Of a stretch of DNA of 64,000 nt, positions 11,301 through 28,240 are shown piece after piece. Each line of letters opens with the position of its first letter. Position 1 is the first letter of the stretch. Origin of the DNA: Patescibacteria group bacterium. GTDB lineage: Bacteria > Patescibacteriota > Patescibacteriia > Buchananbacterales > UBA6539. A program made the position numbers and the translations under genes. The notes below the pieces were generated by a model. That model was not told the origin of the DNA, made no database searches, and saw nothing but the letters and a program-made list of their open reading frames with translations. Location of the stretch: positions 38,552 through 102,551 of the forward strand of contig JBAZSB010000003.1 in the NCBI GenBank assembly GCA_041662625.1. The letters are read 5' to 3'.

Positions 11301-12832
11301 GGTATTGCCAGAAACTAGTCCAGGTGGTGACTACGGCCGGCAATAACAAAGCTTGGACTGGTCGGGTTCAGTCGGGTTCTTCTTATATTTTATCTGACGC
11401 TAAAAGCCAAAAGAATTATTTCTTGTATTATGATCCATTTGACTATAATGAAATGCTTGAGGCGGCGGAAGAATGCTATGGTGTATGTAATGTCAATGGC
11501 CAATATTGTGAAATCCTTGGCCCAGGCAGTGAATGTCCTTGTCCAATGGGTGCGCCCCAGCAGATTGCTCAGGAGTGTATGAATGGCAAGTGTTATGATT
11601 GGAGTGGCAGTGATGCCAATACAATACCAACCAGTTATGACTGTACCGGTGATCCTCCTATTACCTTAAATGGAGAGTGTGATACTTATTTGCCTTTGAC
11701 TAATGAAACACCAACCGGAGATTGTATTTTAGATGCCACTTGCATTGGCGGCAAAAAAGAAGGTAATAGTTGCGAGACTGATGATGATTGCACTGATTAT
11801 AGTCCAGCTTGTTTTATCTACCAATCTTCTGATTTTCAGCCATTTGGTGCTATGGTTCCGCCGGCTGAAAGCCAATACCCAGAAAACTGGGATAGCCGAG
11901 TATCCACTTACCGCCAACCATTATTCTATGAACCGCCTTTGATTTCCCTGGCTGAGCCTTATCAGGCACGGATGGGTGAAGATCATACCGCTGACAGCTT
12001 AATGCGAATCTTTTTGAAGACTTATGGTGTCTGGAGCTGGGATGAAGGCGAATCGGATCTAGCAATTGATGACCATTATGAGCCTCTTGATCCTAATGAT
12101 CCTGATGATGCGGTTGATCTTCTGAATTATTCTTGGAATATTGTCAGCGACTGGGATAATACTTCTAAATTTCCGGATGCTGGTTATTGCACCAGTAATA
12201 TTCGGCCAGTTGAACCAACTCCGCCCACTTTGGATGATGTCACTCTTTGCCGCATTCGGCCAATAATTGATCCACTTAATATTTCGATTAATAATAGCCG
12301 CTCGACTGAGATTGGTAATGGTGATCCAGATGCTGTAATCAGCGGGGCCGGTTCGATTAAATTAAGTTTCACGGTCAAAGTTGATCCAAATCAATTGCCT
12401 ATTGGCTCTTACTCCGTAGATTGGGGCGACGGCGAGGTTTCTTCAGTTAATGGTGTTTCTTTGCGTGCCCGGCCCAACGTGGATAATCCTTTAACGTTGT
12501 ACCATGCGTATGATTTCTGGCAATTGCGCCGGCGCTGTAATGATGTAGGAGCATCTTGCACTGATGAGGCGGCCTGGGATGATGGCACCAGTATGCTTTA
12601 CTGCCCGGATGAAAATTCTTGCCGAATAAGATTAAGGATCAAAGTGCGGGATAACTGGAATGCTGAGACCTGCCTACCCGGGTTATCTGAAGTAAATTGT
12701 GCAGTTTCCCGGTGCAATACTTCACTAAGGACTTGTAATTATTCTAATCCTTGTCCCTCCGGCGAACTTTGTTTACCTGACAATAAATATATTCCGTTAT
12801 TAGATTATATCTTAGTCCAGCCAAGGCAATAA
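2336..12832 (+). CDS. giant (3498 aa) Cys-rich secreted/surface protein with multiple CBM4/9-like carbohydrate-binding-type modules
   Basis: Uninterrupted 10.5-kb ORF. N-terminal signal-anchor (VVLVSMVLSLITPALIYPEP). At least 4-5 modules start with N(P/S/A)SFE/NADFK...W...GW, typical of CBM_4_9. Cys-rich segments throughout. Confidence 0.7.
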   Translation: MIKEIKPKLNLPAATQEADQTISNKWFLAFKKIVTEVVLVSMVLSLITPALIYPEPARASNPTGAPPVTKQYPPKPTEVQVHDASGVKVIQDESGKTQAEVKKGTDNVTEAQKKDTKELTKWEVFKKNLDKMYQKLRNAVKVAAAEAFSYMLNTFAYDTATWLASGGEGQQPMFFTEDWGEYLTNLVDNAAGTFLEKLGNNSWINLNLCTPSLGLKISIGLGLGNLRRPKQPDCTVTKMIKNWKSWAESPNFLSQFDDIFDPKSNDIGIAAKAFGLYYQKVEEDWLAGIFRRKEGEGFKSVGDSIADTILTPGTVTAEGAKQLTRTETGSKGEEVKVEYGNIFNIAIATFINTLLGKLFERLFKKGLVSSKDDKTIDLSGLGNLLARGATNQDLYTGESGIELYSGEKAARLRFLDLLQAGAKQGGAYDVLTKLVYCSDPENPGPDECAIKQDFRSAIERKLTLREAIDQGLIDGNAPFGFMDWDASALYRGISYRSITILRTFRVVPVGWEIAAQTINKFDPGKTYSLNDLIARFADESSDNLFYGLIDPEWVLTLPDHFCKLEGYGSKVVYEGVIGGDDANSDGDFTDANDVPPQRTVGRAEYCADYQSCLQKDESGNCQYYGYCTEERRIWDLQGKGCKPYFNTCQTFQRSDNKVFSFLENTLDFNGCSADNAGCQWYCQVFNPSSDIWTCTNEHIVIDPATGAIDAERVLKPCNLAGGCLVSTSCEIAEGDSSCVDNTNGTNLSISNSCNSGSRWWVGDKCIINPADALCTIKQGDVGCTLTGCESFANLLLNPSFETAASPGNLADKWSTSSGSLTYFERAAGASERIHAGKNSLRFFSYGLSVNETVSAAELELPVGNYYTFSGYVYDYLNAGAITLEVGGSGVTSAQSRVSTKGNGWQLLTFDFLVDKESSPGSGKGKVQVKIIVSGDQVGGTAWFDDFRITQSCVVENVTLTLIGTVGVNESKIHLDRDAQSCDAQNVGCSELIRTLPNFGTNLVPNSSFEDWSDPSGVPQGWQTGENWNSANTSFEQAEGYSDNYSLKLIKKTISTNDDNFSRDFEIPLFALKPNTTYRVSFMARSDQDAAASDRLWYTEILSNHNPDYYCSLDQAENCYIGTVDENEAHCTSLNKGHCVFDYDGVFIGSQRLFPLTDEWQQFVSASFTTRHFSYDFKFSISSHYTNPAKPLYIDNVQVEEVETNNAAVSSYSDYGTKNLVYLKKPPATLACHGYTIDRPSPDVLTGVNQTQCNGENMVWRKFCANATDATDAGEACTNNGECDSNRCNPQGANGCDASGQFCCHYTDWPECSNFAMYCQEDEVGCELYRPVLGGQSIPAKVSIQDYCPAECVGYEAYKQSTSHFESQESLEYFIPKTAKSCTASQVGCTEFTNLDEVARGGEGKEYYQYLRQCRKPDQSDANCQNFYNWQGSDETGYQLKLYNLTGQTPSGGAPLEVNTDPTLWPTYWCEVKTDSGTNGPDCCDGPEDLAANPFCKEFYAASGEIYYRIYANTISCSDDCHPLRQTRLEKDESLARANCDNTKGTWEGDACVYHAIPQEGTRCSASAAGCREYRGNAGGNIFTAFADNFESGDTVGWRFGAISSEALSITGHSIKTQLLGSDTDSNGTIDTYDKRVVTSWASLWKAGTTEYINANIVSCTDTNSTDVPFCDTTHTSNCYDLQLGKCIAKETENNETCYVALGEKSCGVMGNVLLPSRTYLISFWAKNASGVADITLDLLGAVDPAPLATISLSPEWNYYSLGPFTTRAQPDFDLSARLRFIGSVRDSNPDSPSLVDFYVDNVEIKEVADYVYVIKNSWQTPASCDTNPWTLPQPTPAPQFMLGCKQYLDSYSRTHNLKSFTNLCRLEAVGCEALIDTFNLTSPFAKVFNENDANSDVSIPADRLVYLVNRTNYQCPSTKKGCQAVGQPTINVNQEAVNYKTAYLINDPNQYSSSLCSNPEVGCEEWSTGNGFSYFKDPGQRVCEYRLAPGQTQSNWFKFGSSAQTGDCPLVQPSVGVPHPTDNWVGLCASEASSCNQFIDPVSLMSKNLVFNADFKTNVVTTDTPDVPDGWQANLTTDGLVQSLSLQHGNLYTLSFTSNKNLSLADNDLHFEIRNCPQITSFDHSLNNVCINTVTGEPVQPQKLCQSDDNCDVTNHQICSTNVLVISQGAYTGDSRTSTQIDNFPQNQISYSGRVFVTRDCNAKIMITNVGGTIESIIGTAANNYTDGLVKEVALRKTDINYVLADSVDKRSCNGIVDPERYCVLFNDRSEVNYKLGEDDFSYLGFDADVSGINVNNGLPVLQCAGNCDSNAVLNVRPDRTCETWLACNSYATVVNAEGGEERQCLNLGLCNLLADDGSCLNFLETSHGDARKDFYQEPEQIQNLSGYSKAGLEVSDTFNKTIYGYYPYVEMSQEGGATSITNSNFDSVFSEGKEPLGWAEYESKDSQGWQNFKYTIGTDFNSALEGGYLQLNTFYQVVSEDVDLEKGTNYILGGWINTLELKHNNLNDSQLFTQICYKLNNQLDLTCPPELKVFAGLGWQYVTATFNSAGSTALKIVLKNNAGDILACRDGHEDTACAISGYSLLDEILLKPVLKVKNQTPDNLRDFIARSCRLYPDFDSLACQYFEENVLHRGIFGYCLTQDPNNLKQCLQWWPVDQIGGQLTDEILAYNIQSPLYYCVEKGERQIFSEDTEFSFLVSDFSGNFTDAYGLSAQLVPFEISEDYRPAFRYPYVRQFSVRPQIFPRNDWLIPGVGFRLLALGDTLIEVNIFGDQGLKNDPFDLTIGPTGNRGILLAPWGVLVAIPVEMLYAFIAADHGALDMDAHYIGEMNEGIESLGLGEILPDNAVELNLYFIWSWPNGINPENIGRAESTIQTLRQVGDIAKLLLALGGASANSAQHDDAWEEEGVPVFGILEGEETSLNIVFGSLVGVKIATEQDPMYSGIAEDPVPDIPGDIYGGIVVMVEETTDGDLAPGMKLDFIPSEAKAGYCQKLVQVVTTAGNNKAWTGRVQSGSSYILSDAKSQKNYFLYYDPFDYNEMLEAAEECYGVCNVNGQYCEILGPGSECPCPMGAPQQIAQECMNGKCYDWSGSDANTIPTSYDCTGDPPITLNGECDTYLPLTNETPTGDCILDATCIGGKKEGNSCETDDDCTDYSPACFIYQSSDFQPFGAMVPPAESQYPENWDSRVSTYRQPLFYEPPLISLAEPYQARMGEDHTADSLMRIFLKTYGVWSWDEGESDLAIDDHYEPLDPNDPDDAVDLLNYSWNIVSDWDNTSKFPDAGYCTSNIRPVEPTPPTLDDVTLCRIRPIIDPLNISINNSRSTEIGNGDPDAVISGAGSIKLSFTVKVDPNQLPIGSYSVDWGDGEVSSVNGVSLRARPNVDNPLTLYHAYDFWQLRRRCNDVGASCTDEAAWDDGTSMLYCPDENSCRIRLRIKVRDNWNAETCLPGLSEVNCAVSRCNTSLRTCNYSNPCPSGELCLPDNKYIPLLDYILVQPRQ

Positions 12833-12835
12833 TTT

Positions 12836-15800
12836 ATGATGGCTAAGTACGGTCAAAAATTAAGAAAGGCAAAATGGCTAATTGGTTTAGTAATAGTTTT
12901 ATTATTTTTCCTGTTTAGCAATTTTGCCTTGGCAGCCGATGAACCTGGTACCGTCGAGAAAGTAGTTGCCGAATTAATTACTTGGATTTGCATGGCTTTG
13001 ATTAAATTTATTGGCGGGTTATTGGCTATTCTGATTAAAGTTTTACTTTGGCTGATGCGCTATAACGGGTTTGTGGTTTCTACAGCCGTGGCCAACGGCT
13101 GGGTGCTGGTGCGTGATATCTCGAATTTGTTTTTTGTTGTTATCTTATTAGGTATTGCCATTGGTACAATTCTGCGGATTGAATCTTATAATTTTAAAAA
13201 GTTGCTGCCCAAAGTTTTAATTATGGCAGTTTTAGTCAATTTCAGCCGAACCATCTGCGGTTTGATTATTGATGCGGCCCAGGTGGTGATGATGACTTTT
13301 GCTGCCGCTTTTGCCGGTAATGTCGGTGAGAAAGCCATAATTGGTCTTTTAAATTTAGATCAAATAGTTAATTCCGAGACCTGGAATCCTCAGCAAGGTC
13401 TCGATCAGATGACGGTCGCTGTCAGTGCGCTTCTGGCAGTTATTTTACTTCTGGTCGCTTTAGTAGCAATTGTGGTCTATATTGCCGTTCTTATGATGCG
13501 GATTGTTTATCTTTGGCTTTTGGTGATTTTTTCACCCCTTGCCTATATTGCTGCGGCTTTTCCCCAAGGTATGGGTTATGCCAAGCAATGGTGGCAGGAA
13601 TTTGGCAAATATGTCATTATTGGGCCTTTGCTTGCTTTTAATCTCTGGTTAGCTTTTTCTATAGCTGGTACTAGTGGTGGTATATCACCATTAGAGTTGA
13701 ATATAACTGAAGCTGAAGGTCAAGAATTAACTACCGCCTATGTCGGTAAAGAGGCCGCAAACCAGCATTTCATCAATGCCATTGGCGGGCCTTATCAGAT
13801 GGTTTCTTTTATTATCGCTATTGCCATGCTTTTTGTTGGGTTAGCTATGATTAATAAAGTCGGGGTGGCGGGTGGCAATTTGGCTAGTAGCGCGATGAAT
13901 AAGATGAGGCAGCTAGGTACAGCGCCTTTTAGAGCCGGAGCTACACTAGGATTAAAGGCGGCTAAATCACCTATAACTGCTTATGCTTGGGGTGCTCGTA
14001 AATTAAAAGCTGGTTCAGTACCTGCTCTGCGTTGGATGAAAGGTGTTGAGTTAAATCCAGCCAATATTTATCGGGATGTCTCTGGCGCCCTTGCCAGAAA
14101 GAAGGTAGAAGATATCCGCCGAGGTAAACTCGCCGCTGGTGAACATTTAAAATCAGGTGGCTTCCGCGGGGCGGTTTTAGGGCTTGGGGCAACCGAGTGG
14201 GGTGATAATTATTTGAAAGGTTTTATGTTTCAGCAGGGAATCAGGCGGGCTATTTATGGTAAGGCCAAGAGGGCAGGAAAATTTACAGAGCAGGCCGAAA
14301 AATATGAAAAAATCGCCGGTCAAATGACAGTTCAAGAAAGACAGGAGGCAGAAATAAAAGAACAAGAAAATTTGGGTAAAGCCCAAGCAATCCGTGGTCA
14401 TCTGAAAAGCAGAGAAGTTGATTTGAATCAACCTGATAATGAATCTTCGCAGTTGGTGAGTCAGTATATTAGCGATTTAGAAAATAATCTTGAAGCCATT
14501 GAACAAGATAGAATTGATGCAAACTCTAAAGGCAATAAGGCTGAGGTAGACAAATTGACTAAAGAAAAAGAAGGAATGGAAAAACAGCTTAAAACTTTGC
14601 GGGGTAAGGCACAAGAAGGAGGGGGAAAAATTAAATTTGATGATCTAGATAACAATACAAGATTATCAATAGAATCGCTTTTAGATGTTAAAGCAAAGGC
14701 ATATGAAGGCGGGGCAAAATCGATCCGTAAAAATATTGATCAAAGAACGCCAGAAGGCAAAACCATCACCGAAAAACAAAGAGAGCAGGCACGAGAAAAA
14801 GCAGATTATTGGCGCAAAAGAGTGGATCGGGCGGCAGCTCTTACCCCTCAAGATGCTTATACTCGTGGTGAACGGCGAAGCGCTTTTGAAGAACAGCGGA
14901 AGTTATTTGGGGAAACAACTAATGAATTTGAATTGATGGCTGCTTTCCGGAGTGCTGTGACGCGGGGTGAATTAACCGAGGCTGGCGGTATTGCTTTACA
15001 ATCAGCCCGGGTCAGTCATTTAAATGAGTTGGTTAATGATACTCGGGCAACACAGGATTATTTTTATGATAAAGAAGGAAGAATTACCACTGACAAAAAA
15101 GAAGCAGATACAAATCGTGGTCGAAATGGGGTGGCTTATGCTAAAGGTGAGAGTTTTAAAGCTGATGTTGACGGTTTACATGCTTTTACGCAAGAAGTTT
15201 TTATGCATCGGCTTGATGCCGGGAAACAAACTGCCCTTTCATTAGAAAATGATTTAAGCAACATTTCCGAAGCTAATAACTGGTGGACATTTGGCCAGGC
15301 AACTTCTGCTGATTCTGCTGGTCTTTTACAGCAGAACGCGAAAGAATTACAACAAACGAGAAGTTACGTTGAAATGACTAAAAGAGATTTTGAAAGATTG
15401 AGCCGGGAAGGTAATCGGGGAGCCTGGATGACAGAAATGTGGATTGATGACGACGACCATTCTAAGGGTCGTAAGGCAATTTTAAATCCGGTTGGCGTGG
15501 TTGGTATGGCCCAAAACTGGGAAAGCATTTTAACTAACTTGCCTCGTGGTCGTTATAATAAAAATAATGCCATTCACATGATGTCAGAAGAGAACCAAAA
15601 GATTTTGGATGCAATCGAAGAGCAATACATCCCGGACTCTAGCAAAAAGAAATGGAAACAGTTCAGAAATGAACTTGAAAAATTTGCCGGTAAAGCGACT
15701 GGTGGAGCCGGAGGATCGTTGGGTGATCGAGTCCGTGAAGAATTGGGTGAAGCCGAAGTAATCAGGCGAACAGCGGCTAAAACACAGCCAGAAGGATTTT

Positions 15801-16366
15801 TAGATTTTGTGGAGGAACACGCCGTCGTGGAAGAACACCCCGTCGTGGAAGAACACCCCGTCTCAGGCCAAGCTTCAGCGGGTCAATCACCGCAAGCACC
15901 GGCAATATCTCCTGGATTAAATTTGTCGCCAGTACCGGCAATACCTTCTGGATTCAATTTGCCGCCTGCTGCTGCTAATAGAGTTGATAATTTAATGGAT
16001 CAAATGGATGATTTAGGAAGAATCTCTGGTCTTGTTAGCGGAGCTTTATCTCCAGAAGAACAAGCAGAAGATCTAGCAAGACTTAATGATGGAATTAGTA
16101 AACTAGCCGATAATATTGAAAAACTTGGCGATCAATTAGGTGATTTAGAGCATTTGGGTAGCGTTAGTCAATCTCTTACTGATTTAGGTAAAGATATTAG
16201 AAGTCAGCAAGGTGCTAGAGGAGCGGCGGATAATCCCAATGAGGCTGTTAAGCTTTTAAGAGAAATTGAGAATACACTTGAAAATTTGCAAATGCAAAGG
16301 TCAGCCGGTGAGGAAAGTCGAGAGGATGAAGATGAAGATGAATATGAAGAATTGGGACCACTTTAG
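12836..16366 (+). CDS. polytopic membrane protein (about 8 TM helices) with a long charged coiled-coil C-terminal tail; VirB6/TrbL-like candidate
   Basis: N-terminal signal followed by multiple hydrophobic helices over about 330 aa. C-terminal about 800 aa is rich in E/K/R/Q coiled-coil and contains EEH(A/P)VVEEHPV repeats. Lies 3 bp after the giant gene. Confidence 0.5.
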   Translation: MMAKYGQKLRKAKWLIGLVIVLLFFLFSNFALAADEPGTVEKVVAELITWICMALIKFIGGLLAILIKVLLWLMRYNGFVVSTAVANGWVLVRDISNLFFVVILLGIAIGTILRIESYNFKKLLPKVLIMAVLVNFSRTICGLIIDAAQVVMMTFAAAFAGNVGEKAIIGLLNLDQIVNSETWNPQQGLDQMTVAVSALLAVILLLVALVAIVVYIAVLMMRIVYLWLLVIFSPLAYIAAAFPQGMGYAKQWWQEFGKYVIIGPLLAFNLWLAFSIAGTSGGISPLELNITEAEGQELTTAYVGKEAANQHFINAIGGPYQMVSFIIAIAMLFVGLAMINKVGVAGGNLASSAMNKMRQLGTAPFRAGATLGLKAAKSPITAYAWGARKLKAGSVPALRWMKGVELNPANIYRDVSGALARKKVEDIRRGKLAAGEHLKSGGFRGAVLGLGATEWGDNYLKGFMFQQGIRRAIYGKAKRAGKFTEQAEKYEKIAGQMTVQERQEAEIKEQENLGKAQAIRGHLKSREVDLNQPDNESSQLVSQYISDLENNLEAIEQDRIDANSKGNKAEVDKLTKEKEGMEKQLKTLRGKAQEGGGKIKFDDLDNNTRLSIESLLDVKAKAYEGGAKSIRKNIDQRTPEGKTITEKQREQAREKADYWRKRVDRAAALTPQDAYTRGERRSAFEEQRKLFGETTNEFELMAAFRSAVTRGELTEAGGIALQSARVSHLNELVNDTRATQDYFYDKEGRITTDKKEADTNRGRNGVAYAKGESFKADVDGLHAFTQEVFMHRLDAGKQTALSLENDLSNISEANNWWTFGQATSADSAGLLQQNAKELQQTRSYVEMTKRDFERLSREGNRGAWMTEMWIDDDDHSKGRKAILNPVGVVGMAQNWESILTNLPRGRYNKNNAIHMMSEENQKILDAIEEQYIPDSSKKKWKQFRNELEKFAGKATGGAGGSLGDRVREELGEAEVIRRTAAKTQPEGFLDFVEEHAVVEEHPVVEEHPVSGQASAGQSPQAPAISPGLNLSPVPAIPSGFNLPPAAANRVDNLMDQMDDLGRISGLVSGALSPEEQAEDLARLNDGISKLADNIEKLGDQLGDLEHLGSVSQSLTDLGKDIRSQQGARGAADNPNEAVKLLREIENTLENLQMQRSAGEESREDEDEDEYEELGPL

Positions 16367-18001: not shown

Positions 18002-19177
18002 ATGTCAAAGACTAAAGAAAAAAACCACATTTTTACTTCGGAATCAGTCAGCGAAGGTCATCCGGATAAAGTTTGTGACCAAATTTCCGATGCCATCTTG
18101 GATGAGCTGATTCGTCAGGACAAAAATTCCCATGCCGGAATTGAAACTTTAGCTACGACCGGTCTGGTAGTGGTGGCCGGAGAAATCAGAACGAAAGGTT
18201 ATGTTGATATTGCTAGCATCGTGCGAAGAACGATTAAAGAAATCGGCTATGATGATCATACTATTGGTTTTCATTGGGAAGATTGTGGCGTGATGGTGGC
18301 AATTGATGAACAAAGTCCAGACATTGCCCAGGGCGTGGATAGCGGCCGCGGCAAATTTAAAAAACAAGGCGCTGGTGATCAGGGTTTAATGTTTGGTTAT
18401 GCCTGCAAAGATACGCCCGAATTGATGCCACTGCCCATCATGTTGGCACATCAAATTGTTCAAAGACTCTCTCAGCTTCGGAAAAACAAAACAATGCCTT
18501 ACCTGCGGCCCGATGGCAAGTCAGAGGTTGCGGTTGAATATGTTAATAATAAGCCCAAGCGAGTTGATACGATTATTGTTGCTGCCAGCCACGACTGCGA
18601 AGTTGATGAAAAGAAAGTTGAAAGAGAAGTAATCAATAAAGTCATTAAACCGATTTGTAAAAAATATATCGATCGTAAAACCCGCTATTTCGTTAATGCC
18701 ACTGGTCGTTTTGTCAAATGTGGCCCGCCGGCTGACACTGGTTTAACCGGCAGAAAAATCATTGTTGATACTTATGGTGGTCATGGTAGTCATGGTGGCG
18801 GTTGTTTTTCCGGCAAGGATCCGTCAAAAGTTGACCGCTCGGCTTCTTATATGGCAAGATACGTGGCAAAAAATATTGTTGCCGCCGGAATTGCTGACCG
18901 GTGTGAAGTTCAGATGGCCTATGTCATTGGCGTGGCCGAACCAATCAGTATTTTGGTAGATACTTTTAGTACTGGTAAAATTTCTGACGAAAGAATTGTC
19001 AGTTTAATTAGAAAGTATTTTGATTTAACCCCGGCCGGGATTATTACCAAGCTAAATCTGTTAAGGCCAATTTATAAAAAGACTGCTGCCTACGGCCATT
19101 TTGGCCGCAAGGACCCGGATTTTACCTGGGAAAAGACAGATTTAGCCAAAGTCTTAAGAAAAGCAGCAGGTTTGTAA
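18002..19177 (+). CDS. metK: S-adenosylmethionine synthetase
   Basis: [34 protein letters not shown] is the canonical MetK N-terminus, with [12 protein letters not shown] and DTYGG motifs. SD-like ggaaaggaaaagataaaATG. The ORF-track start at 17909 lies inside the upstream repeat and is rejected. Confidence 0.9.
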
Positions 19178-19179
19178 AG

Positions 19180-19712
19180 TCGGTAGAACGGTAGGTCAGT
19201 AGGTTGGTAGAACGGTAGAGAAATTAAGTTCACATACAATCAACATAGCGCGCCTAAATAATAATTTATGAAATTATGGCGTTGCTAGTCGATTATAGAA
19301 AGTTGATTGTTTGGCAAAAGGGAGTAGATTTAGTTGTTGAAGTCTACAAATTAACTGAGTTACTTCCCAAGTCAGAGTTGTACGGTTTAACTTCACAAAT
19401 AAGAAGGTCGGCAGTTTCTATTCCATCAAACATTGCCGAAGGCCGAAGAAGGTGTAGTCTAGCCGAGTATAGACATTTTCTACAAATTGCCTTTGGTTCC
19501 GGTGGCGAATTAGAAACCCAGATAGAAATTTGTAAAAGGCTGCCAGGAATAAAAGAGTTCGACTATAGATCAGTAGATTTGCTGCTTGAAGAAGTAATGA
19601 AAATGCTAAATAAAATGATTAACAATAGACAGGTGGATTAGCAGATAGGTAGAACTATAAGGTTGTTTAATAACCTACTAACCTACCGATCTACAATCCT
19701 ACCGATCTACTT
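19180..19712 (+). mobile_element. intact IVS-like element: inverted-repeat arms (GGTAG-rich left, CTACC-rich right) enclosing a four-helix-bundle protein gene
   Basis: The left arm gtcggtagaacggtaggtcagtaggttggtagaacggtag and right arm cctactaacctaccgatctacaatcctaccgatctac are imperfect reverse complements. Same architecture as the degraded copy upstream of metK. Confidence 0.55.
19276..19641 (+). CDS. four-helix-bundle protein (23S rRNA intervening-sequence protein family, TIGR02436-like)
   Basis: About 120 aa. N-terminal (Y/F)xKL(I/K)VWQK, central IAEG(R/S), C-terminal MINNR. Paralog at 62933-63289. Confidence 0.7.
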   Translation: MALLVDYRKLIVWQKGVDLVVEVYKLTELLPKSELYGLTSQIRRSAVSIPSNIAEGRRRCSLAEYRHFLQIAFGSGGELETQIEICKRLPGIKEFDYRSVDLLLEEVMKMLNKMINNRQVD

Positions 19713-20855
19713 ATGACTGATCAAAATCAAAACCAAACTGATGATTTTTTCAATCTAATCAAGGAAGAACAGAAGGTTGAAAACCCCTTCGCTAATGATG
19801 AAATTTTATTTCGTGACAAAAGTGGTCAATTGAAGGTTTTAAAAGGTGGGGTAGTTTTGGATTTTGATAAGCAAAAAGTTCCTCAGCCACCAAGCAGTGC
19901 TCAGGTTAGTCCCCAGGTTGCCATACCAGTTAAACCTGTTCAAGTTAAAACCATTGAACCAGTTGAAGAAGAACTTATCAGCAAACCATTGAAGCTTGAC
20001 GAAGAGGTGAAGCGGATAATTGATAAATCCGGAATTCAATTGGAAACAGCTGAGGCGGATCAGCGTTTTAAAAATATTATCACCGCTCGACTCAAAGATA
20101 TTAGAGATCAAGTTCAAACCAGAGATATGCTTTTGAGTTCACCTTTGGTCGGTGGCATGGGGTTTGATTCACAAAAAGCTGATTCTATCTTAGCCATTAT
20201 TAATCAGGAGTTTGATGATTTGCATAGTCAGTTGAGGCAGTCGGTTAGTAATGAGCCGTTTTCTGATCTTAAAACCGAAGCGAAAAAACTTCTTGAAGAA
20301 CCGCTGGTTGAACCACCGGAAATAGTTTTCCAGCCGGCAGGGGCCCCAGAAGCTTCTGCGTCCGCCCAGACTCAACCAAAGATAGCACCAGTGATGGAAA
20401 CGAAAACTGAAGTTGTAATTAAAGAGCCAGTTGAATTTGAACCAGTGCCAGAAAGAGTCAGCATCAGTCGGCCGTTAGTGAGTCGAGATGAAACCAAGCC
20501 AAAAATTGAAGATGTTAAATTCCAACCGCGTTTAACTGGCCCAGTTGAAGAAATTAGATCAATGACGTTGACGGATTTCCGTCGCCTCGGAACAACGCCC
20601 CAGGAGGCCATTGAAAAGATTTTAGCCAAAATTGAGCTTTTGGAAGAAGAATCATTTACGCGAAAAGTTGAAGCTATCAGAGCTTGGAAGGAAAATGAAA
20701 TTCAGCAACTTTATCTTGAATTAGGGGATCAGAGTATGGAAGAGAAAAGACCAATTGCCGAAATTATCAATCGGCGAGCGCAAGAAAATATTCCCACTTT
20801 AAGCCAAGAGGAAGTTGAATCCATCATTGAATTAAATCAGAGGTTAAGATATTAA
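19713..20855 (+). CDS. hypothetical Pro/Glu-rich protein (380 aa)
   Basis: Long ORF starting immediately after the IVS-like right arm. Acidic and proline-rich, no TM helix. Confidence 0.45.
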   Translation: MTDQNQNQTDDFFNLIKEEQKVENPFANDEILFRDKSGQLKVLKGGVVLDFDKQKVPQPPSSAQVSPQVAIPVKPVQVKTIEPVEEELISKPLKLDEEVKRIIDKSGIQLETAEADQRFKNIITARLKDIRDQVQTRDMLLSSPLVGGMGFDSQKADSILAIINQEFDDLHSQLRQSVSNEPFSDLKTEAKKLLEEPLVEPPEIVFQPAGAPEASASAQTQPKIAPVMETKTEVVIKEPVEFEPVPERVSISRPLVSRDETKPKIEDVKFQPRLTGPVEEIRSMTLTDFRRLGTTPQEAIEKILAKIELLEEESFTRKVEAIRAWKENEIQQLYLELGDQSMEEKRPIAEIINRRAQENIPTLSQEEVESIIELNQRLRY

Positions 20856-20944
20856 AATAACAATTGACAATTAACTTTTAACAAAAAATGTGTTGGCAAT
20901 CATCAGTAGTTAATTGTTAATGGTTAACTGCTAACAGTTTAATT

Positions 20945-21406
20945 ATGCAGCAATTCGTCGTGCCACAATTTATCGATGTTGAAGATAAGGTCATCGGGCC
21001 AATTACGGTCCGGCAGTTTATTATTTTGTTAGTTGGCGGTGGTTTTATTTTTATTGCTTACAAATTATCTGATTTTACTTTATTTTTAGTAGAATTTATA
21101 TTTATTTTAGCTTTGACTGTTGGTATTGCCTTTATCAAAATTAATGGTCGACCGATTCATTATTTTTTTCTTAATGTTATCCAGACTTCAAAACGGGCAA
21201 AACTGAGAATTTGGCAAAAGATATTTTCTAATGCCGAACTTAAAGTTTATAGTAAAGTCGAAGTGCCTAAACTCCCGCCGCAAATTAGAACTAAAAACCG
21301 GGTGCGAGCTTCTCGGTTGGCCGAAATGTCTTTAATTGTTGATACCGGTGGTGTTTATCAAGGTGAGAAGGAGCCGCCGAGCAGCACGCCATTAGAAATT
21401 TATTAG
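20945..21406 (+). CDS. PrgI/VirB3-like small membrane protein of T4SS
   Basis: N-terminus FVVPQFIDVEDKVIGPITVRQFIILLVGG followed by two TM helices, the typical PrgI-family pattern. Directly precedes VirB4. Confidence 0.55.
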   Translation: MQQFVVPQFIDVEDKVIGPITVRQFIILLVGGGFIFIAYKLSDFTLFLVEFIFILALTVGIAFIKINGRPIHYFFLNVIQTSKRAKLRIWQKIFSNAELKVYSKVEVPKLPPQIRTKNRVRASRLAEMSLIVDTGGVYQGEKEPPSSTPLEIY

Positions 21407-21413
21407 TTTAATT

Positions 21414-22094
21414 ATGAAATCAAAAAAATTGGCCAATAAAAAAATTAGTGCCGTTACTCAACATTATCTTGATATTGCTGAAATTAAAGAAGATACGGTA
21501 GTCTTGAAAGATGGTACTTTGCGCGCAGTGCTTTTGGTTTCTAGCCTTAATTTTTCTTTAAAATCTGAAGAGGAGCAAGAAGCAATTATTTCCGCTTATG
21601 TCAGCTTTTTGAATTTTTTGGAATTTCCTTTACAAATTGTAATCCAATCAAGAAAATTAGATATTGATGGCTATTTGGGTCGCTTAAAGAAAATTGAGAA
21701 AGAGCAGACCAATGAATTATTAAGAATGCAGACTGCCGAATATCGTCAATATATTAGTGAGCTTGTTGAAATGGGTGATATTATGAATAAGCGATTTTAT
21801 ATTGTTGTCCCTTATGACCCTCTTACTGACAAGCAGAAATCTTGGTTTCGTCGTTTTATCAGTTTATTTACCGCTGCCAAGGAAGTCAAATTGAGTCAAC
21901 AAGCTTTTATGAAACGGCGCCGTGATTTGTTTCAGCGAGTTGAGCATGTTGTTACTGGACTAGCCTCAATGAGTTTGAAATCAGTGGTGTTAGACACTCA
22001 AAGTTTGATTGAACTTTATTATAATACTTATAATCCGGATGTTTATAATCAAGAAAAGTTAGTTGAATTAAACAAAATCCAAGTCGAAGAATAA
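21414..22094 (+). CDS. VirB4/TrbE-family conjugative ATPase, N-terminal (CagE_TrbE_VirB) part; ends at an in-frame TAA
   Basis: ...HYLDIAEIKEDTVVLKDGTLRAVLLVSSLNFSLKSEEEQ... is typical of the VirB4 N-domain. Same reading frame as the next ORF; only TAA-AAT separates them. Confidence 0.6.
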   Translation: MKSKKLANKKISAVTQHYLDIAEIKEDTVVLKDGTLRAVLLVSSLNFSLKSEEEQEAIISAYVSFLNFLEFPLQIVIQSRKLDIDGYLGRLKKIEKEQTNELLRMQTAEYRQYISELVEMGDIMNKRFYIVVPYDPLTDKQKSWFRRFISLFTAAKEVKLSQQAFMKRRRDLFQRVEHVVTGLASMSLKSVVLDTQSLIELYYNTYNPDVYNQEKLVELNKIQVEE

Positions 22095-22097
22095 AAT

Positions 22098-24029
22098 ATG
22101 GCTATTAAACCACAAGAAGTAATCAGAGATGAAAAGTTGGCGGCTTTGCCAATGGAGGAAAAACTGACGCCTGAGCAAAAAAAGAAAAAAGAAGAATCGG
22201 AATTAACGGTGGCTAAAACTGTTCTGGAAGAAGAGCGCATTTATCGTGAGGGAGTTATTTCGATAAAAGATCTAATTGCTCCTGCTGCCATGGAGGTAAC
22301 GCCGACCTTTCTTAAGCTGGGCAATAGGTATGTCCGGACCATTTTTGTTGTCGGCTATCCCCGTTATATTGCTGTTGGCTGGTTTGCCCCGATTATCAAC
22401 TTGAGTGTTGCTTTAGATATTGCCATGTTTTTCTATCCGGTTAAGTCTGATATTATTTTGAAGCAGTTAAAAAATAAAGTTGGTGCTTTAGAAGCTCAGA
22501 TATTGGCTGATCGGGAAAAGGGTGCGCCACGTGATCCAATTCGTGAGACTGCCTTAAGGGACATTGAAAAATTAAGAGATGACTTGACTCAAGGTGTGGA
22601 ACACTTTTTTCAATTTGGTCTTTATGTCACTATTTATTCTGAAGATAAGGAAAAACTTGACAATTTAACTGGTGATATCGAATCTTTGTTTGGTTCGCGG
22701 CTGGTTTTTTCAAAAAAAGTTCTCTATCAGGCTGAGCAAGGATTTAATTCGACTTTACCTTTAGGTAATGATGAATTGATGATTAGTTTTAATATGAATT
22801 CTTCGCCAGTAGCGTCTTCTTTCCCTTTTATTTCTTCTGAATTAACTTCTGATGAAGGAATTTTGTATGGGATTAACCGGCATAATAACAGTTTAATTTT
22901 ATTTGATCGGTTTTCCCTGCAGAATGCTAATACTGTTGTTTTTGCCACTTCCGGAGCGGGTAAAAGTTATACCATTAAACTTGAGGTTTTAAGAACGATG
23001 ATGCTGGGGACCGATGTGATTGTGATTGACCCGGAGCGGGAATATAAACATCTTTGCGATGCAGTTGGCGGTACTTACGTTAATATTTCCTTAAGTTCTG
23101 AGAGTAAAATTAATCCTTTCGATTTACCGCGCGCCGTTGGTGAGCAGCGGCCGGCCGATATAATTCGCGGATCGGTCATTACCCTTAAAGGTTTAGTCAG
23201 ATTGATGTTAGGCCAACTTACTCATCAAGAGGATTCATTAGTTGATCGGGCTTTACTCGAGACTTATGCGAAAAAAGATATTACTGCTGACTCTGATCTA
23301 GCTAAAATTGAAGCACCAATCATGCAGGATTTTCAGGATATTTTAGACGGCATGGAAGGCGGAGCTGATTTAGCCTTACGTTTAAAGAAATACACGCAAG
23401 GGACCTTTGCTGGTTTATTTAATAATCCGACCAATGTGGATATGAAAAATCAGCTCGTGGTTTTTTCAGTCAGGGATTTAGAAGATGAGTTAAGGCCGAT
23501 GGCAATTTATACGATTGTTAACTACATCTGGAACGTAGTCAGATCGCAGCTCAAGAAAAGGATTCTGATTATTGATGAGGCTTGGTGGTTAATGCAAAAC
23601 GAAGATTCAGCCAAATTTATTTGTGCCCTAGTCAAGCGTTGCCGTAAGTATTATTTAGGGGTAACTAATATTACTCAAGATGTCAATGATTTTTTGCTTT
23701 CCCCTTATGGTCAGGCCATAGTTAATAATTCAGCCATGCAACTTTTAATGCGTCAATCGCCAGCGGCAATTAATTTGGTTCAAAAAACTTTTATCTTAAC
23801 TGAAGGCGAAAAATACTTATTGCTCGAATGTGGCGTTGGCGAAGGAATATTTTTTGCCGGTGACAAACATGCGGCAATTAAAGTCGTTGCTTCTTATACC
23901 GAAGATCAGTTAATTACTTCTGACCCGCGCCAAATTTTGGAAATTGAGGAAGCAAAAAAAGAATTTGACCGGGTAATGGCCGGTCAAATTGATCAACCAG
24001 AATCAGAAGTAGAAGCAGAGACTGTCTAA
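22098..24029 (+). CDS. VirB4/TrbE-family conjugative ATPase, C-terminal ATPase part
   Basis: Walker A VVFATSGAGKSY, Walker B/DEAW motif RILIIDEAWWLM, C-terminal motifs of the VirB4/TraC family. Confidence 0.75.
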   Translation: MAIKPQEVIRDEKLAALPMEEKLTPEQKKKKEESELTVAKTVLEEERIYREGVISIKDLIAPAAMEVTPTFLKLGNRYVRTIFVVGYPRYIAVGWFAPIINLSVALDIAMFFYPVKSDIILKQLKNKVGALEAQILADREKGAPRDPIRETALRDIEKLRDDLTQGVEHFFQFGLYVTIYSEDKEKLDNLTGDIESLFGSRLVFSKKVLYQAEQGFNSTLPLGNDELMISFNMNSSPVASSFPFISSELTSDEGILYGINRHNNSLILFDRFSLQNANTVVFATSGAGKSYTIKLEVLRTMMLGTDVIVIDPEREYKHLCDAVGGTYVNISLSSESKINPFDLPRAVGEQRPADIIRGSVITLKGLVRLMLGQLTHQEDSLVDRALLETYAKKDITADSDLAKIEAPIMQDFQDILDGMEGGADLALRLKKYTQGTFAGLFNNPTNVDMKNQLVVFSVRDLEDELRPMAIYTIVNYIWNVVRSQLKKRILIIDEAWWLMQNEDSAKFICALVKRCRKYYLGVTNITQDVNDFLLSPYGQAIVNNSAMQLLMRQSPAAINLVQKTFILTEGEKYLLLECGVGEGIFFAGDKHAAIKVVASYTEDQLITSDPRQILEIEEAKKEFDRVMAGQIDQPESEVEAETV

Positions 24030-24056
24030 AAAATTTAAAGATTAATTATTAATTAT

Positions 24057-24647
24057 ATGAGTCGACGCAATAAAATAATTATCATCGTGGTGGTGGCAGT
24101 AGTTGTTTTATTATTAATAATAATATTTGTCTGGTGGCTGGGTCAAAGACAAAAATCAATCAGTCCGGGAGAAACAAATGCCAATGTGGGCCTTAATATT
24201 CCAGCAGGACTGCCGTCAGCCTCCACTGGCTTGACCAATCAGATTGAGCCAACTGCTTCCGAACCAAATCTAGAAGCTAGCCTCAAGGCCATTGCCTCAA
24301 CTTTTGCTGAACGGTTTGGTAGTTATTCTAATCAAGGGAATTTTTCTAATCTTGATGACCTGAAGGATCTAATGACTGTAAGAATGAAGAGTGCAATTGG
24401 TGATTATAAGGCCGATCAACAAGCTTCGATGGGCGGCACTGGCTACTATGGTGTTACAACTAAGGCAATTTCGCCACAAATTACTAATTTTGAAGAAAGT
24501 TTAGGCCGAGCCGAAATAATAGTTAAAACCCAAAGGCAAGAATCTTTCGGTAATACAACTAATCCTAAAGTTTTCTACCAAGATTTGAAACTAAATTTGG
24601 TCAAGACTGAGGCGGGTTGGAAAGTTGACGTCGCGCAGTGGCAGTAG
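24057..24647 (+). CDS. membrane-anchored hypothetical protein; possible VirB8/TcpC-like (NTF2-like) component
   Basis: N-terminal TM helix IIIIVVVAVVVLLLIIIFVWWL, then a soluble domain of about 150 aa ending in GWKVDVAQW. The assignment is an inference from position and size only. Confidence 0.3.
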   Translation: MSRRNKIIIIVVVAVVVLLLIIIFVWWLGQRQKSISPGETNANVGLNIPAGLPSASTGLTNQIEPTASEPNLEASLKAIASTFAERFGSYSNQGNFSNLDDLKDLMTVRMKSAIGDYKADQQASMGGTGYYGVTTKAISPQITNFEESLGRAEIIVKTQRQESFGNTTNPKVFYQDLKLNLVKTEAGWKVDVAQWQ

Positions 24648-24736
24648 TAAAATGGTACTACTAATTATAAACCACTAAGGGCGGGGAAGTGGTATAAAAT
24701 CAACATAGCGCTGCTTAAGATTAAAGTTAACAAGCT

Positions 24737-25399
24737 ATGTTCGATTTCAAGAAGTTATTTATTGATTTACTTTTCCCGATTGAATGTTTAGGCTGTGGTG
24801 AAAAAGAGCATTGGCTTTGCCCCGCCTGCTCAGCAAAAATTGAAATCAAGTTTAAAAACCAGCCGGAAATATTTGCCCCAAATCAGAGTTTAACCGGAGT
24901 TTGGTTAGCTGCTGATTATCGTCAGCCGCTTTTAATTAAAGTTTTGCATACTTTTAAATATAGCTTTGTTGTCTGTCTGGGTCAGGATTTAGCTGAGGTT
25001 TTAATCAGATTTTTGTCATTTAAAATCAAACAAAAAGAAATTTCTGGCTTTGATTTAGTCATTGCTATCCCATTAGCAAAACGAAGGCGACTTTGGCGAG
25101 GCTTTAATCAGGCGGAAATTTTGGCTGCTGAAATCAGTCGGCATTTTAGTTGGTCGAACAAATCAGATTTACTTTTTCGAAAGTATTATAACCGGCCTCA
25201 GGTTGGCTTGAAAGCCGTTGACCGGATCATTAATGTAAAAGGAATTTTCTGTGTTCAGCGTAGTGATTTATTAAAAAACAAGAAGGTTCTATTGATTGAT
25301 GACGTGGTCACTACCGGTGCCACGATGCAGGAATGTGCTAAAGTGATTAAAGAGGCTGGCGCCAAGGAAATTTGGGGATTAGCCGTGGCGCGTGGTTAA
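24737..25399 (+). CDS. comF: ComF-family (ComFC) competence protein, phosphoribosyltransferase domain with N-terminal zinc finger
   Basis: CLGCG...CPAC zinc ribbon; PRTase motif VLLIDDVVTTGATMQECAKVI. Confidence 0.75.
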   Translation: MFDFKKLFIDLLFPIECLGCGEKEHWLCPACSAKIEIKFKNQPEIFAPNQSLTGVWLAADYRQPLLIKVLHTFKYSFVVCLGQDLAEVLIRFLSFKIKQKEISGFDLVIAIPLAKRRRLWRGFNQAEILAAEISRHFSWSNKSDLLFRKYYNRPQVGLKAVDRIINVKGIFCVQRSDLLKNKKVLLIDDVVTTGATMQECAKVIKEAGAKEIWGLAVARG

Positions 25400-25403
25400 A
25401 CTC

Positions 25404-25432
25404 TTTACAGAAATGGTTTGTGGTGATATAAT
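25404..25432 (+). promoter_or_regulatory. sigma70 promoter TTTACA-17-TATAAT for tRNA-Ser
   Basis: ctcTTTACAgaaatggtttgtggtgaTATAATatcaagg, 14 nt upstream of the tRNA. Confidence 0.5.
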
Positions 25433-25446
25433 ATCAAGGTTTTTAA

Positions 25447-25533
25447 GGAGAGGTGCCGGAGTGGTCGAACGGGACTCACTGCTAACGAGTTATCCCTTAA
25501 CCGGGATCGCGGGTTCGAATCCCGCCCTCTCCG
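25447..25533 (+). tRNA. tRNA-Ser (anticodon GCU), class II with long variable arm
   Basis: GGAGAGG acceptor stem, anticodon loop CUGCUAA, variable arm TATCCCTTAACCGGGATC, T-arm GCGGGTTCGAATCCCGC. CCA not encoded. Confidence 0.75.
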
Positions 25534-26175: not shown

Positions 26176-27000
26176 ATGAAAATAGCATTATCTACCCCAG
26201 TTTCAGAAATTAGCCGAGTGGGGAAAACGACCGCCATTCGTTTAAAAAAATTAGGCATTGAGACCGCTTCTGATCTCATTTTTTATTATCCTTTTCGTTG
26301 GGAAGATTTTAGTCAGATTTCGGAAATTGCTGAACTTACTCCCAGCTCAATTGTAACAATTCGGGGCAAAATTCAGCTGATAAAAAATCGTCGGAGTCCG
26401 GTAAAAAGAAAATTTTTAACCGAAGCTTTGGTGGCTGATAAAACCGGTTCAATTAAAGTTATTTGGTTTAATCAGCCATTTTTAGCCGAAGTTTTAAACC
26501 CGGGTGAGTTGGTTTATCTGTCCGGTAAAGTTGATTTTGACCGTTATACCATGCAATTGATTAATCCGGTTTATGAAAAAGTTACTAAAGGAACTACGAC
26601 TCATACGGCCCGGCTAGTGCCAATTTATTCATTAACTAGTAATTTAACCGAAAAACAAATTCGTTTTTTGATTAAATCAGTTTTGCCTGTGGCTAAATTA
26701 ATTAAAGATTGGTTACCCGAGTCAGTTATTAAAAATAATAATTTGATTAATTTAACTTTAGCTTTAAATCAAATTCATTTTCCGGCCGATCAAAAAATAT
26801 TAGCTCAGGCAATTCAGCGGCTTAAATTTGATGAACTATTTTTATTTCAGTTGCAGATCGTTTTAAGTCGGATTGAGATGAGCTCCAGTATCGCTGAACC
26901 AATAAATTTTTTTGAGGCCAAAACCAAAGAATTCGTCAGTTCTTTACCTTTTCGCTTAACTGATGATCAAAAAAAAATAAGCTTGGCAAATTATTTCTGA
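26176..27000 (+). CDS. recG: ATP-dependent DNA helicase RecG, N-terminal (wedge/OB) part; frame lost at an A-run
   Basis: Ends ...LPFRLTDDQKKISLANYF*. The homologous RecG motif continues in the +1 frame. Confidence 0.65.
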   Translation: MKIALSTPVSEISRVGKTTAIRLKKLGIETASDLIFYYPFRWEDFSQISEIAELTPSSIVTIRGKIQLIKNRRSPVKRKFLTEALVADKTGSIKVIWFNQPFLAEVLNPGELVYLSGKVDFDRYTMQLINPVYEKVTKGTTTHTARLVPIYSLTSNLTEKQIRFLIKSVLPVAKLIKDWLPESVIKNNNLINLTLALNQIHFPADQKILAQAIQRLKFDELFLFQLQIVLSRIEMSSSIAEPINFFEAKTKEFVSSLPFRLTDDQKKISLANYF

Positions 27001-27019: not shown

Positions 27020-28240
27020 ATGAATCGTTTACTCGAAGGCGAAGTCGGTTCAGGTAAAACAATGGTGGCAACTTTAGCTATGTTTAATGTTAGCTTAGCT
27101 AATTTACAAACGGTTTTAATGGCGCCAACTGAAATTTTGGCCGCCCAACATTATAAAACTATTAGTAGCCTACTTAAGGCAAGTGGAGTCAAAGTTGCTC
27201 TTTTAACCCGATCGCAGCAAAAAATTAATGACCAAACAGTGACCAATCATAAAATTTTAGATCAGCTTTTGGCCGGAGAGATTAAAATAATTGTTGGCAC
27301 CCATGCCTTGATTCAAGAAAGAGTCGAATTTAAAAAACTTGCTTTAGCGATCATTGATGAGCAGCATCGCTTTGGAGTGGAGCAGCGAAAATTATTAAGA
27401 GAAAAATCAGGCGATCCAAAAATTACCCCTCATTTACTTTCAATGACCGCTACCCCCATTCCGCGATCTTTAGCTTTGACTTTGTATGGTGATTTAGATT
27501 TATCGATTATTAAAGAAATGCCAAAAGAACGAAAGAAAGTAATTACCGAAATTGTTGACCCAGCCAAACGTCAGCAGACTTATAATTTTATCCGTGATCA
27601 AATCCGTGATGGTCGTCAGGCGTTTGTTATTTGTCCTTTAATTGACCTTTCAGATAAATTAGGTGTTAAGGCCGTGACTGAAGAATATGAGAAGTTAACC
27701 AAGGAAGTTTTTCCGGAATTAAAAATTGCGATGCTCCATGGTAAATTAAAGGCTGCCCAAAAAGAAAAAATAATGGCTGATTTTTTGGCTAAACAAAGCG
27801 ATATTTTAGTCTCAACTTCAGTGGTTGAGGTCGGAGTTGACGTTCCTAATGCCAGCGTGATGTTAATTGAGGGCGCGGATCGGTTTGGTCTGGCTCAGCT
27901 TCACCAATTTCGCGGTCGGGTCGGGAGAAGCAACTTCCAATCTTATTGTTTTCTTTTTTCTGATAACCCAAGTCAAAAAACTAAAACTCGTCTCCAAGCT
28001 TTAATCTCAGCTAAAGATGGCTTTGAATTAGCCGAACTTGATTTACAACTGCGGGGGCCAGGCGAAATTTATGGTACGGTTCAATCTGGTCTGCCAGTTT
28101 TTAGAATTGCTCAATTATCTGATCATGAATTGATTGTTAAAACCAAAAATGCGGCTGAGCTGGTGGCACCGCATTTGGAAAAATATCCAATTTTGCAGGA
28201 GAAAATTAATCAGTTAATCAAAGAAGTACATTTAGAATAA
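27020..28240 (+). CDS. recG: ATP-dependent DNA helicase RecG, helicase-core part
   Basis: PMNRLLEGEVGSGKT (motif I), DEQHRFGV (motif II), helicase C-terminal motifs QLHQFRGRVGR. Upstream in this frame the sequence reads AWQIISDLQKNKP, continuing the RecG linker. Confidence 0.8.
   Translation: MNRLLEGEVGSGKTMVATLAMFNVSLANLQTVLMAPTEILAAQHYKTISSLLKASGVKVALLTRSQQKINDQTVTNHKILDQLLAGEIKIIVGTHALIQERVEFKKLALAIIDEQHRFGVEQRKLLREKSGDPKITPHLLSMTATPIPRSLALTLYGDLDLSIIKEMPKERKKVITEIVDPAKRQQTYNFIRDQIRDGRQAFVICPLIDLSDKLGVKAVTEEYEKLTKEVFPELKIAMLHGKLKAAQKEKIMADFLAKQSDILVSTSVVEVGVDVPNASVMLIEGADRFGLAQLHQFRGRVGRSNFQSYCFLFSDNPSQKTKTRLQALISAKDGFELAELDLQLRGPGEIYGTVQSGLPVFRIAQLSDHELIVKTKNAAELVAPHLEKYPILQEKINQLIKEVHLE

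Follow-up and report, generated by a model that had tools for sequence, protein, structure and literature searches.

Separate trsD-like and virB4-like genes, rather than one interrupted virB4 gene, as the probable arrangement around an in-frame TAA in a Patescibacteria type IV secretion locus

The type IV secretion system (T4SS) genes of the Staphylococcus aureus conjugative plasmid pGO1 (pGO1/pSK41; MPF_FATA, pGO1 subclass) follow the order trsC, trsD, trsE and encode 135, 227 and 672 aa, respectively (DUF87 for trsE). TrsD has been described as remotely homologous to the N-terminus of VirB4 (Quinonero-Coronel et al., 2025; PMC12102498, cited throughout from a part of its text). According to that part, TrsD, VirB4 and PrgI/VirB3 homologs are widespread in Patescibacteria, TrsD is the T4SS component recovered there in the largest number (2,272 homologs, 1,664 of them adjacent to VirB4), and the CONJScan/MacSyFinder TrsD profile recovers the Patescibacteria homologs. 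The placement of TrsD beside VirB4 is already described for both Patescibacteria and pGO1-type plasmids; the word TrsD is absent from the main text of Guglielmini et al. (2014; PMC4027160). In other systems VirB4 is a single chain of approximately 750-900 aa, as in TrwK of R388, the CD1110 family and the Mbov_0397 family. Here we analyzed a stretch of 64,000 nucleotides from a Patescibacteria group bacterium (GCA_041662625.1, contig JBAZSB010000003.1, positions 38,552 to 102,551; hereafter the window), in which two VirB4-related open reading frames (ORFs), ORF A and ORF B, lie in one reading frame on either side of a TAA codon. We conclude with near certainty that they are two separate, intact and probably co-transcribed genes and not one interrupted gene, and that their shared frame is coincidental. 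The features concerned are as follows, in positions of the window.

20945-21406, + strand: PrgI/VirB3-like small membrane protein of 153 aa, the first gene of the prgI-trsD-virB4 run (PF12666).
21414-22094, + strand: ORF A, a TrsD-like, soluble protein of 226 aa with the C-terminus ...NKIQVEE (assigned by the homology given below).
22092-22097, + strand: TAA stop codon of ORF A (22092-22094) and a 3-nt spacer, AAT (22095-22097), read directly.
22098-24029, + strand: ORF B, a predicted VirB4/TrsE-like T4SS ATPase of 643 aa (MAIKPQEV...), starting at ATG 22098.

The window presents the same gene order as pGO1, with the PrgI-like protein of 153 aa as the counterpart of the VirB3-like trsC product, ORF A (226 aa) as that of TrsD and ORF B (643 aa) as that of TrsE. 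The proteins of the two systems are very distant (24-26% identity). In BLASTP, ORF B matched pGO1 TrsE with an E value of 1e-43, and since residue 58 of ORF B aligns to TrsE residue 36 onward, the breakpoints of the two systems appear to be equivalent. The settings differ: pGO1 is a conjugative plasmid with a relaxase and a coupling protein nearby, whereas no relaxase was found among the ORFs examined in the window, and the window locus looks chromosomal, lying among housekeeping genes (S-adenosylmethionine (SAM) synthetase, recG and a clpB-like gene). Compared with the fused VirB4 proteins, the window has the first ~200 residues as a separate gene product; ORFs A and B jointly cover the whole fused-family profile, the Walker A and B motifs are present, and the predicted fold of ORF A is closest to TrwK. 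The PrgI-TrsD-VirB4 trio is that of Quinonero-Coronel et al. (2025), its proteins are identical or nearly identical to Patescibacteria entries from metagenome-assembled genomes, and no substantive difference from the part of the account cited here is apparent. What is added here is the detail of the junction (0-509 nt spacing, random frame and rare fusion), which was not found stated in that part.

The layout given in a preliminary description of this DNA, made from the sequence alone, could be read directly: ORF A, TAA AAT and the ATG of ORF B follow one another, the start positions of both ORFs are divisible by 3, and exactly one stop codon lies between them in their shared frame. Eighty GTDB species-representative Patescibacteria loci were fetched, and both genes were located in them by tblastn. 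Both were present in 74 of the 80 loci and were separate in all 74, and the trsD/virB4 split is conserved across Patescibacteria. The genes overlap in one locus (L052); in the 73 measurable loci the spacer ranged from 0 to 509 nt and was most commonly 2 nt. The frame of virB4 relative to trsD was the same in 26 loci, shifted by +1 in 19 and by +2 in 28 (chi-square p = 0.40 against one third each). The trsD stop codon in these 73 loci was TAA in 47, TAG in 17 and TGA in 9, and it followed the same conserved C-terminus (...VEE). In the nearest lineage, which is 95% identical and represented by ENA, JGI and Logan assemblies, 83 nt separate the two genes and their frames differ, yet ORF B has the start codon and first codons seen in the window (ATGGCTATTAAACCACAAGAAGTAAT). 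Another relative with 81% identity (L001) has a 2-nt spacer and again a different frame. Because the frame relation is random among orthologs and the nearest relatives are out of frame, the shared frame of the window can be regarded as a one-in-three coincidence. On this comparative basis, the TAA at 22092-22094 is probably the normal stop codon of ORF A.

Protein searches gave a similar picture. The best 120 homologs of ORF A (64-100% identity) were 193-237 aa long, mostly 226 aa, and the best 120 homologs of ORF B were 555-678 aa long; no homolog of approximately 870 aa occurred among the best 120 of either. They came from Buchananbacteria, Falkowbacteria, Roizmanbacteria and other Patescibacteria. 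Among the homologs of ORF A, many residues were invariant up to the C-terminus over the 226 aa, and both ORFs are conserved and under purifying selection. For a wider view, a HMMER search with ORF A was run exhaustively over 1.84 billion cluster representatives (50% identity), and the best 150 were taken (34-69% identity). All but one of these (149 of 150) were stand-alone proteins of 107-443 aa. In the single fused protein (P0378, 898 aa), residues 2-222 are A-like and residues 322-890 are B-like, the latter 51% identical to ORF B, and the two parts are joined by a linker of ~95 aa rich in Pro and Ala.

The preliminary description had raised the possibility that a VirB4 of ~870 aa was recently hit by a nonsense mutation, leaving a pseudogene or an inactivated T4SS. 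A shared frame with one TAA in it, two products that together cover the full VirB4 profile and the existence of one fused relative would all suit such an event. However, the split is seen in all close homologs and in each of the 74 species-level loci that have both genes, the 95% identical relative has its two genes 83 nt apart in different frames, and ORF A, being 64-100% identical to its homologs with invariant residues to the C-terminus, is unlike a decaying fragment. A recent nonsense mutation is, on these grounds, extremely improbable, and a gene of the window that is truly broken, described below, behaves differently.

That gene is recG, which is split into an ORF for the wedge domain (26176-27000, 274 aa, RecG profile positions 4-272 of 692) and an ORF for the helicase (27020-28240, 406 aa, profile positions 286-663), in different frames. 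The break (junction 26969-27000) is a run of nine A followed by TAA, and removal of one base restores a continuous RecG motif. In all of the related metagenome loci (29/29), the two recG halves shared a frame uninterrupted by any stop codon, and a near-identical strain (L122) has an intact recG of 687 aa with A8+TCA where the window has A9+TAA. The recG gene of the window thus appears to be genuinely disrupted, either by a homopolymer assembly error or by strain-specific inactivation. A lesion of this kind is recognized by an intact single ORF in the relatives and by a break that is private to one sequence. This pattern was found for recG, which is intact in all relatives, and was not found for the A/B junction, so that the same comparison which detects the broken recG finds trsD and virB4 apparently normal.

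The recG break also bears on a second suggestion of the preliminary description, that a base-calling error or strain heterogeneity underlies the TAA, taken here to include faulty assembly and mixed strains in the metagenome. The window does come from a metagenome-assembled genome, and in the recG homopolymer it has at least one lesion that probably arose in assembly or at the strain level. Nevertheless, the junction TAAAATATG is identical base for base in the Logan SRR18595301 assembly (L086) and, over 71 nt, in ENA ERZ27249449 (L122). The latter is no copy of the same assembly, because its recG sequence differs from that of the window. Orthologs also stop at the same protein position, and the 83-nt, out-of-frame spacer of the 95% identical lineage has no place in this explanation. 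We give an erroneous or heterogeneous TAA practically no credence.

Programmed readthrough or recoding of the stop codon, producing a fused TrsD-VirB4 as a functional isoform, was a further option. It draws on the shared frame with only TAA-AAT between the ORFs, on the 11 of 73 relatives that likewise have a single in-frame stop, and on the natural fusion P0378, by which a fused form is known to be able to exist. Among stop codons, TAA is generally the least prone to readthrough, which counts against this option. The frame relation among orthologs (26/19/28) is random, 15 of the 26 spacers that keep the frame hold 2-7 stops, and in neither of the two closest relatives (95% and 81% identity) do the genes share a frame. 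In addition, no conserved recoding signal was seen, although no search was aimed at one. Readthrough as the function of this junction is therefore very improbable. By contrast, a secondary alternative of the preliminary description, a split gene whose second part is translated from the adjacent ATG, agrees with the evidence of conserved separate genes.

Some stand-alone homologs of ORF A (P0259 and P0262) carry C-terminal tails of ~200 aa in which Pro, Ala, Gln and Gly are abundant. Since P0378 has its linker at this point and ORF B begins with ~45 charged residues ahead of its first conserved stretch, these tails place the breakpoint at a flexible linker. The trsD/virB4 breakpoint region appears to be a hotspot for disordered insertions.

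ORF B was examined by profile searches and by sequence motifs. It matched NCBIfam NF045971 (conju_CD1110) with 352.6 bits, above the family cut-off of 325 (E value, 4.4e-105), over profile positions 177-730 of 752 only, and it matched VirB4_plasma over positions 278-892 of 894. Positions 214-727 of TIGR00929 (VirB4) align to its residues 49-578. Residues 274-577 gave the Pfam matches P-loop_TraG (101.6 bits against a cut-off of 25.8), AAA_10 and DUF87. Both nucleotide-binding patterns used, GxxGxGKS/T for Walker A and hhhhDE for Walker B, are present at the following places.

22950-22967, + strand: Walker A, SGAGKS, ORF B residues 285-290 (read from the translation).
23562-23585, + strand: Walker B region, ILIIDEAW, ORF B residues 489-496 (read from the translation).

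By profile and motifs, ORF B is classed as a VirB4-type T4SS ATPase. Its charged N-terminal tail is followed by the second half of the VirB4 N-terminal domain and then by the P-loop ATPase domain. The preliminary description had placed the break at the border of the N-terminal and ATPase domains; the break instead lies inside the N-terminal domain, and ORF B keeps ~270 residues N-terminal to its P-loop domain. ORF B does not have the full-length VirB4 architecture in one chain, as positions 1-176 of conju_CD1110 and 1-277 of VirB4_plasma are absent from it. The absent part is probably supplied by ORF A.

ORF A matched VirB4_plasma over positions 91-253 of 894 (E value, 2.5e-10) and conju_CD1110 over positions 2-117 of 752 (E value, 2e-3). 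These matches bear out the earlier statement that both ORFs are related to VirB4. The profile matches of ORFs A and B are colinear and tile the complete VirB4, with ORF A covering the N-terminal part and ORF B the remainder. ORF A also matched the TrsD/TraD family NF041427 over positions 13-149 of 201 (E value, 4.6e-6); its 26.6 bits lie below the NCBIfam cut-off of 200. When a profile of 60 ORF A sequences was aligned to pGO1 TrsD with hhalign, homology was detected over 121 aligned columns (26% identity; E value, 2.3e-5; probability, 76%). Pfam hmmscan of ORF A returned TraC_F_IV only, below threshold (E value, 0.005), and did not return PF26593 (TraC-like), which is the precomputed Pfam domain of an identical protein (P0001) and of all its listed homologs. 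A sequence search of the PDB with the ORF A profile gave nothing meaningful (best E value 0.23, dynactin). An AlphaFold2 model of ORF A built from the 60-sequence alignment had a mean predicted local distance difference test score (pLDDT) of 70.7. The top 14 Foldseek matches of this model in the PDB were all TrwK/VirB4 chains of the R388 T4SS (best E value, 7.7e-3; probability, 0.99; TM-score, 0.38). The predicted likeness to VirB4 is weak but one-sided. ORF A has no transmembrane segment, and with its 226 aa it lies between the PrgI/VirB3-like and VirB4 genes, which is the layout of a small soluble TrsD.

An independent accessory protein that only superficially resembles the VirB4 N-terminus, without any split VirB4, could also account for a sub-threshold Pfam match, an empty PDB sequence search and a TM-score of 0.38. 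Such a protein would hardly be expected to show colinear matches to the N-terminal part of two fused VirB4 families, with ORF B beginning where the ORF A match ends, nor to have a relative such as P0378, which aligns to both ORFs. The 14 structural matches point to VirB4 alone, and the same remote homology is stated in the cited part of Quinonero-Coronel et al. (2025). We consider the accessory-protein explanation very improbable, and ORF A is more plausibly a separately encoded equivalent of about the first 200 VirB4 residues.

Several points weigh against the reading of ORFs A and B as separate TrsD-like and VirB4-like genes. The single fused relative indicates that fusion is tolerated. By the NCBI threshold, ORF A is a remote TrsD homolog and not a member of the family, and this remote assignment is accompanied by an hhalign probability of only 76%. 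The structural likeness carries the low TM-score and the pLDDT given above. No Shine-Dalgarno motif precedes ORF B, whose leader is AT-rich. Finally, we infer both the separate translation of the two proteins and their association.

Of these points, the missing Shine-Dalgarno motif can be set against the rest of the window. Such a motif lies within 20 nt upstream of the start in only 7 of the 42 long ORFs, most leaders being AT-rich, and the leader of ORF B is like those of 35 of the 42 genes. Because so few genes have one, its absence before ORF B is uninformative, and the presence of the motif is no guide to correct starts in this genome. Among the signs that would speak against an interrupted gene, the preliminary description had named orthologs in the form of two genes, each with its own ribosome-binding site; the two genes were observed in all 74 loci, and a ribosome-binding site of the Shine-Dalgarno type was not found before ORF B, which is typical here.

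The surroundings of the two genes were examined for their organization. The PrgI-like gene is separated from ORF A by 7 nt and ORF A from ORF B by 3 nt. Its product matched Pfam PF12666 (PrgI; E value, 6.3e-8; 33.5 bits against a cut-off of 27) and has two predicted transmembrane helices, with hydrophobic segments at residues 16-39 and 40-69. This gene also stands 5' of ORF A in relatives L083-L086. Downstream of ORF B lies one further gene.

24057-24647, + strand: protein of 196 aa with one N-terminal transmembrane anchor (hydrophobic residues 1-33), next to virB4.

This gene is kept downstream of ORF B in the close relatives L083 and L122, and its product had no significant Pfam or NCBIfam match. 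In a promoter scan of 19000-25500, promoter-like sites were at the level of shuffled sequence (16 against 16.6 expected), and a terminator scan of the same region found no terminator-like site between ORFs A and B. A stretch without a terminator is compatible with co-transcription and is not evidence for it.

We propose that the prgI-like gene, ORF A and ORF B would be transcribed together and that ORF B would be translated from its own ATG at 22098, either by independent initiation or by coupling to the termination of ORF A 3 nt upstream. The two proteins may then associate non-covalently and rebuild a VirB4-like unit. In the R388 structure, VirB3 wraps the N-terminal domain of VirB4, and VirB4 dimerizes through that domain (Mace et al., 2022; PMC9259494). 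Given this wrapping by VirB3, ORF A could bind the N-terminal half of ORF B together with the PrgI/VirB3-like protein, rebuilding the membrane-proximal part of the VirB4 protomer.

The evidence is compatible with a breakpoint shared by the Patescibacteria and pGO1 splits, and a broader scenario can be put forward tentatively, although we rate it as rather doubtful. The Patescibacteria trsD/virB4 and pGO1 trsD/trsE splits might both go back to a single ancient fission at a common breakpoint, which would link the patescibacterial T4SS specifically to the pGO1-like branch among monoderm conjugation systems. In this scenario, the detached module might set the TrsD:VirB4 stoichiometry independently, and trace readthrough might add a fused isoform in strains with a shared frame.

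Matches to ORF A were also collected from plasmids. A tblastn search of PLSDB gave matches in 371 plasmids, mostly of Bacillus and other Bacillota. In plasmids of Pontibacillus and C. botulinum, the match carries the label 'hypothetical protein' and overlaps the following gene at its end; in Pontibacillus this following gene is a CD1110-family VirB4, and in C. botulinum its only annotation is DUF87. In B. anthracis pXO1 (L123, 88047-89312 and downstream), a PrgI-family gene is followed by a TrsD-like ORF of 304 aa, and the place downstream where VirB4 would be expected holds only ORFs of 418 and 160 aa with no PLSDB annotation; this region may be a decayed VirB4. A haloarchaeal plasmid (Salinigranum) has a TrsD-like ORF near the end of the record, with no annotated VirB4 in the stretch shown.

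Some features of the spacers themselves were seen in passing. Long trsD-virB4 spacers (60-200 nt) occur in L007, L012, L013, L014, L022, L034, L037, L039, L058, L069 and L074. They often consist of short direct repeats, such as CCCTAATCC units or AAGATCATTAAGATAAGAT units, and others contain inverted repeats able to form hairpins, such as GTCATTGCGAGCGGAGCGAAGCAATCTCG...CTTCGTTCCTCGCAATGAC in L012. These repeats may be intergenic repeat elements or signals for mRNA processing or stability. In L008 (4137-7633) and L011 (4173-7669), a TrsD homolog is present with no VirB4 match within 3.5 kb downstream; these downstream stretches contain almost no long ORFs, no N runs and no Rfam matches, and they are possibly chimeric contigs or unusual non-coding stretches.

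Upstream in the T4SS-like run, between the SAM synthetase gene and an ORF of 380 aa, a small gene at 19276-19641 matched PF05635, the 23S-rRNA-intervening-sequence-protein family (E value, 4e-37). By eye, a seemingly similar gene lies at approximately 4180-4690 of L060, within its 509-nt trsD-virB4 spacer, and in the 95% identical relative a PDDEXK_3 gene occupies the slot of the PF05635 gene of the window. The small PF05635 gene may be mobile or often swapped. Two very large adjoining ORFs lie 5' of the T4SS-like genes (2336-12832, 3498 aa; 12836-16366, 1176 aa); the 1176-aa protein and the next protein, of 463 aa, had no Pfam or NCBIfam matches.

Beyond the point of annotation, nothing in this arrangement would surprise a T4SS specialist. 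As a rule, an in-frame stop between adjacent ORFs with homology to successive domains means little unless relatives have a single ORF. In the cited part of Quinonero-Coronel et al. (2025), the TrsD homolog adjoining VirB4 in Ca. S. epibionticum ML1 is given as an essential gene, and epibiotic growth of a cultivated patescibacterium is reported to require the T4SS (citing Wang et al., 2023). A false pseudogene call at virB4 would for that reason mislead inference about lifestyle, and the T4SS-like locus of this genome should be treated as intact and not as one with an inactivated VirB4.

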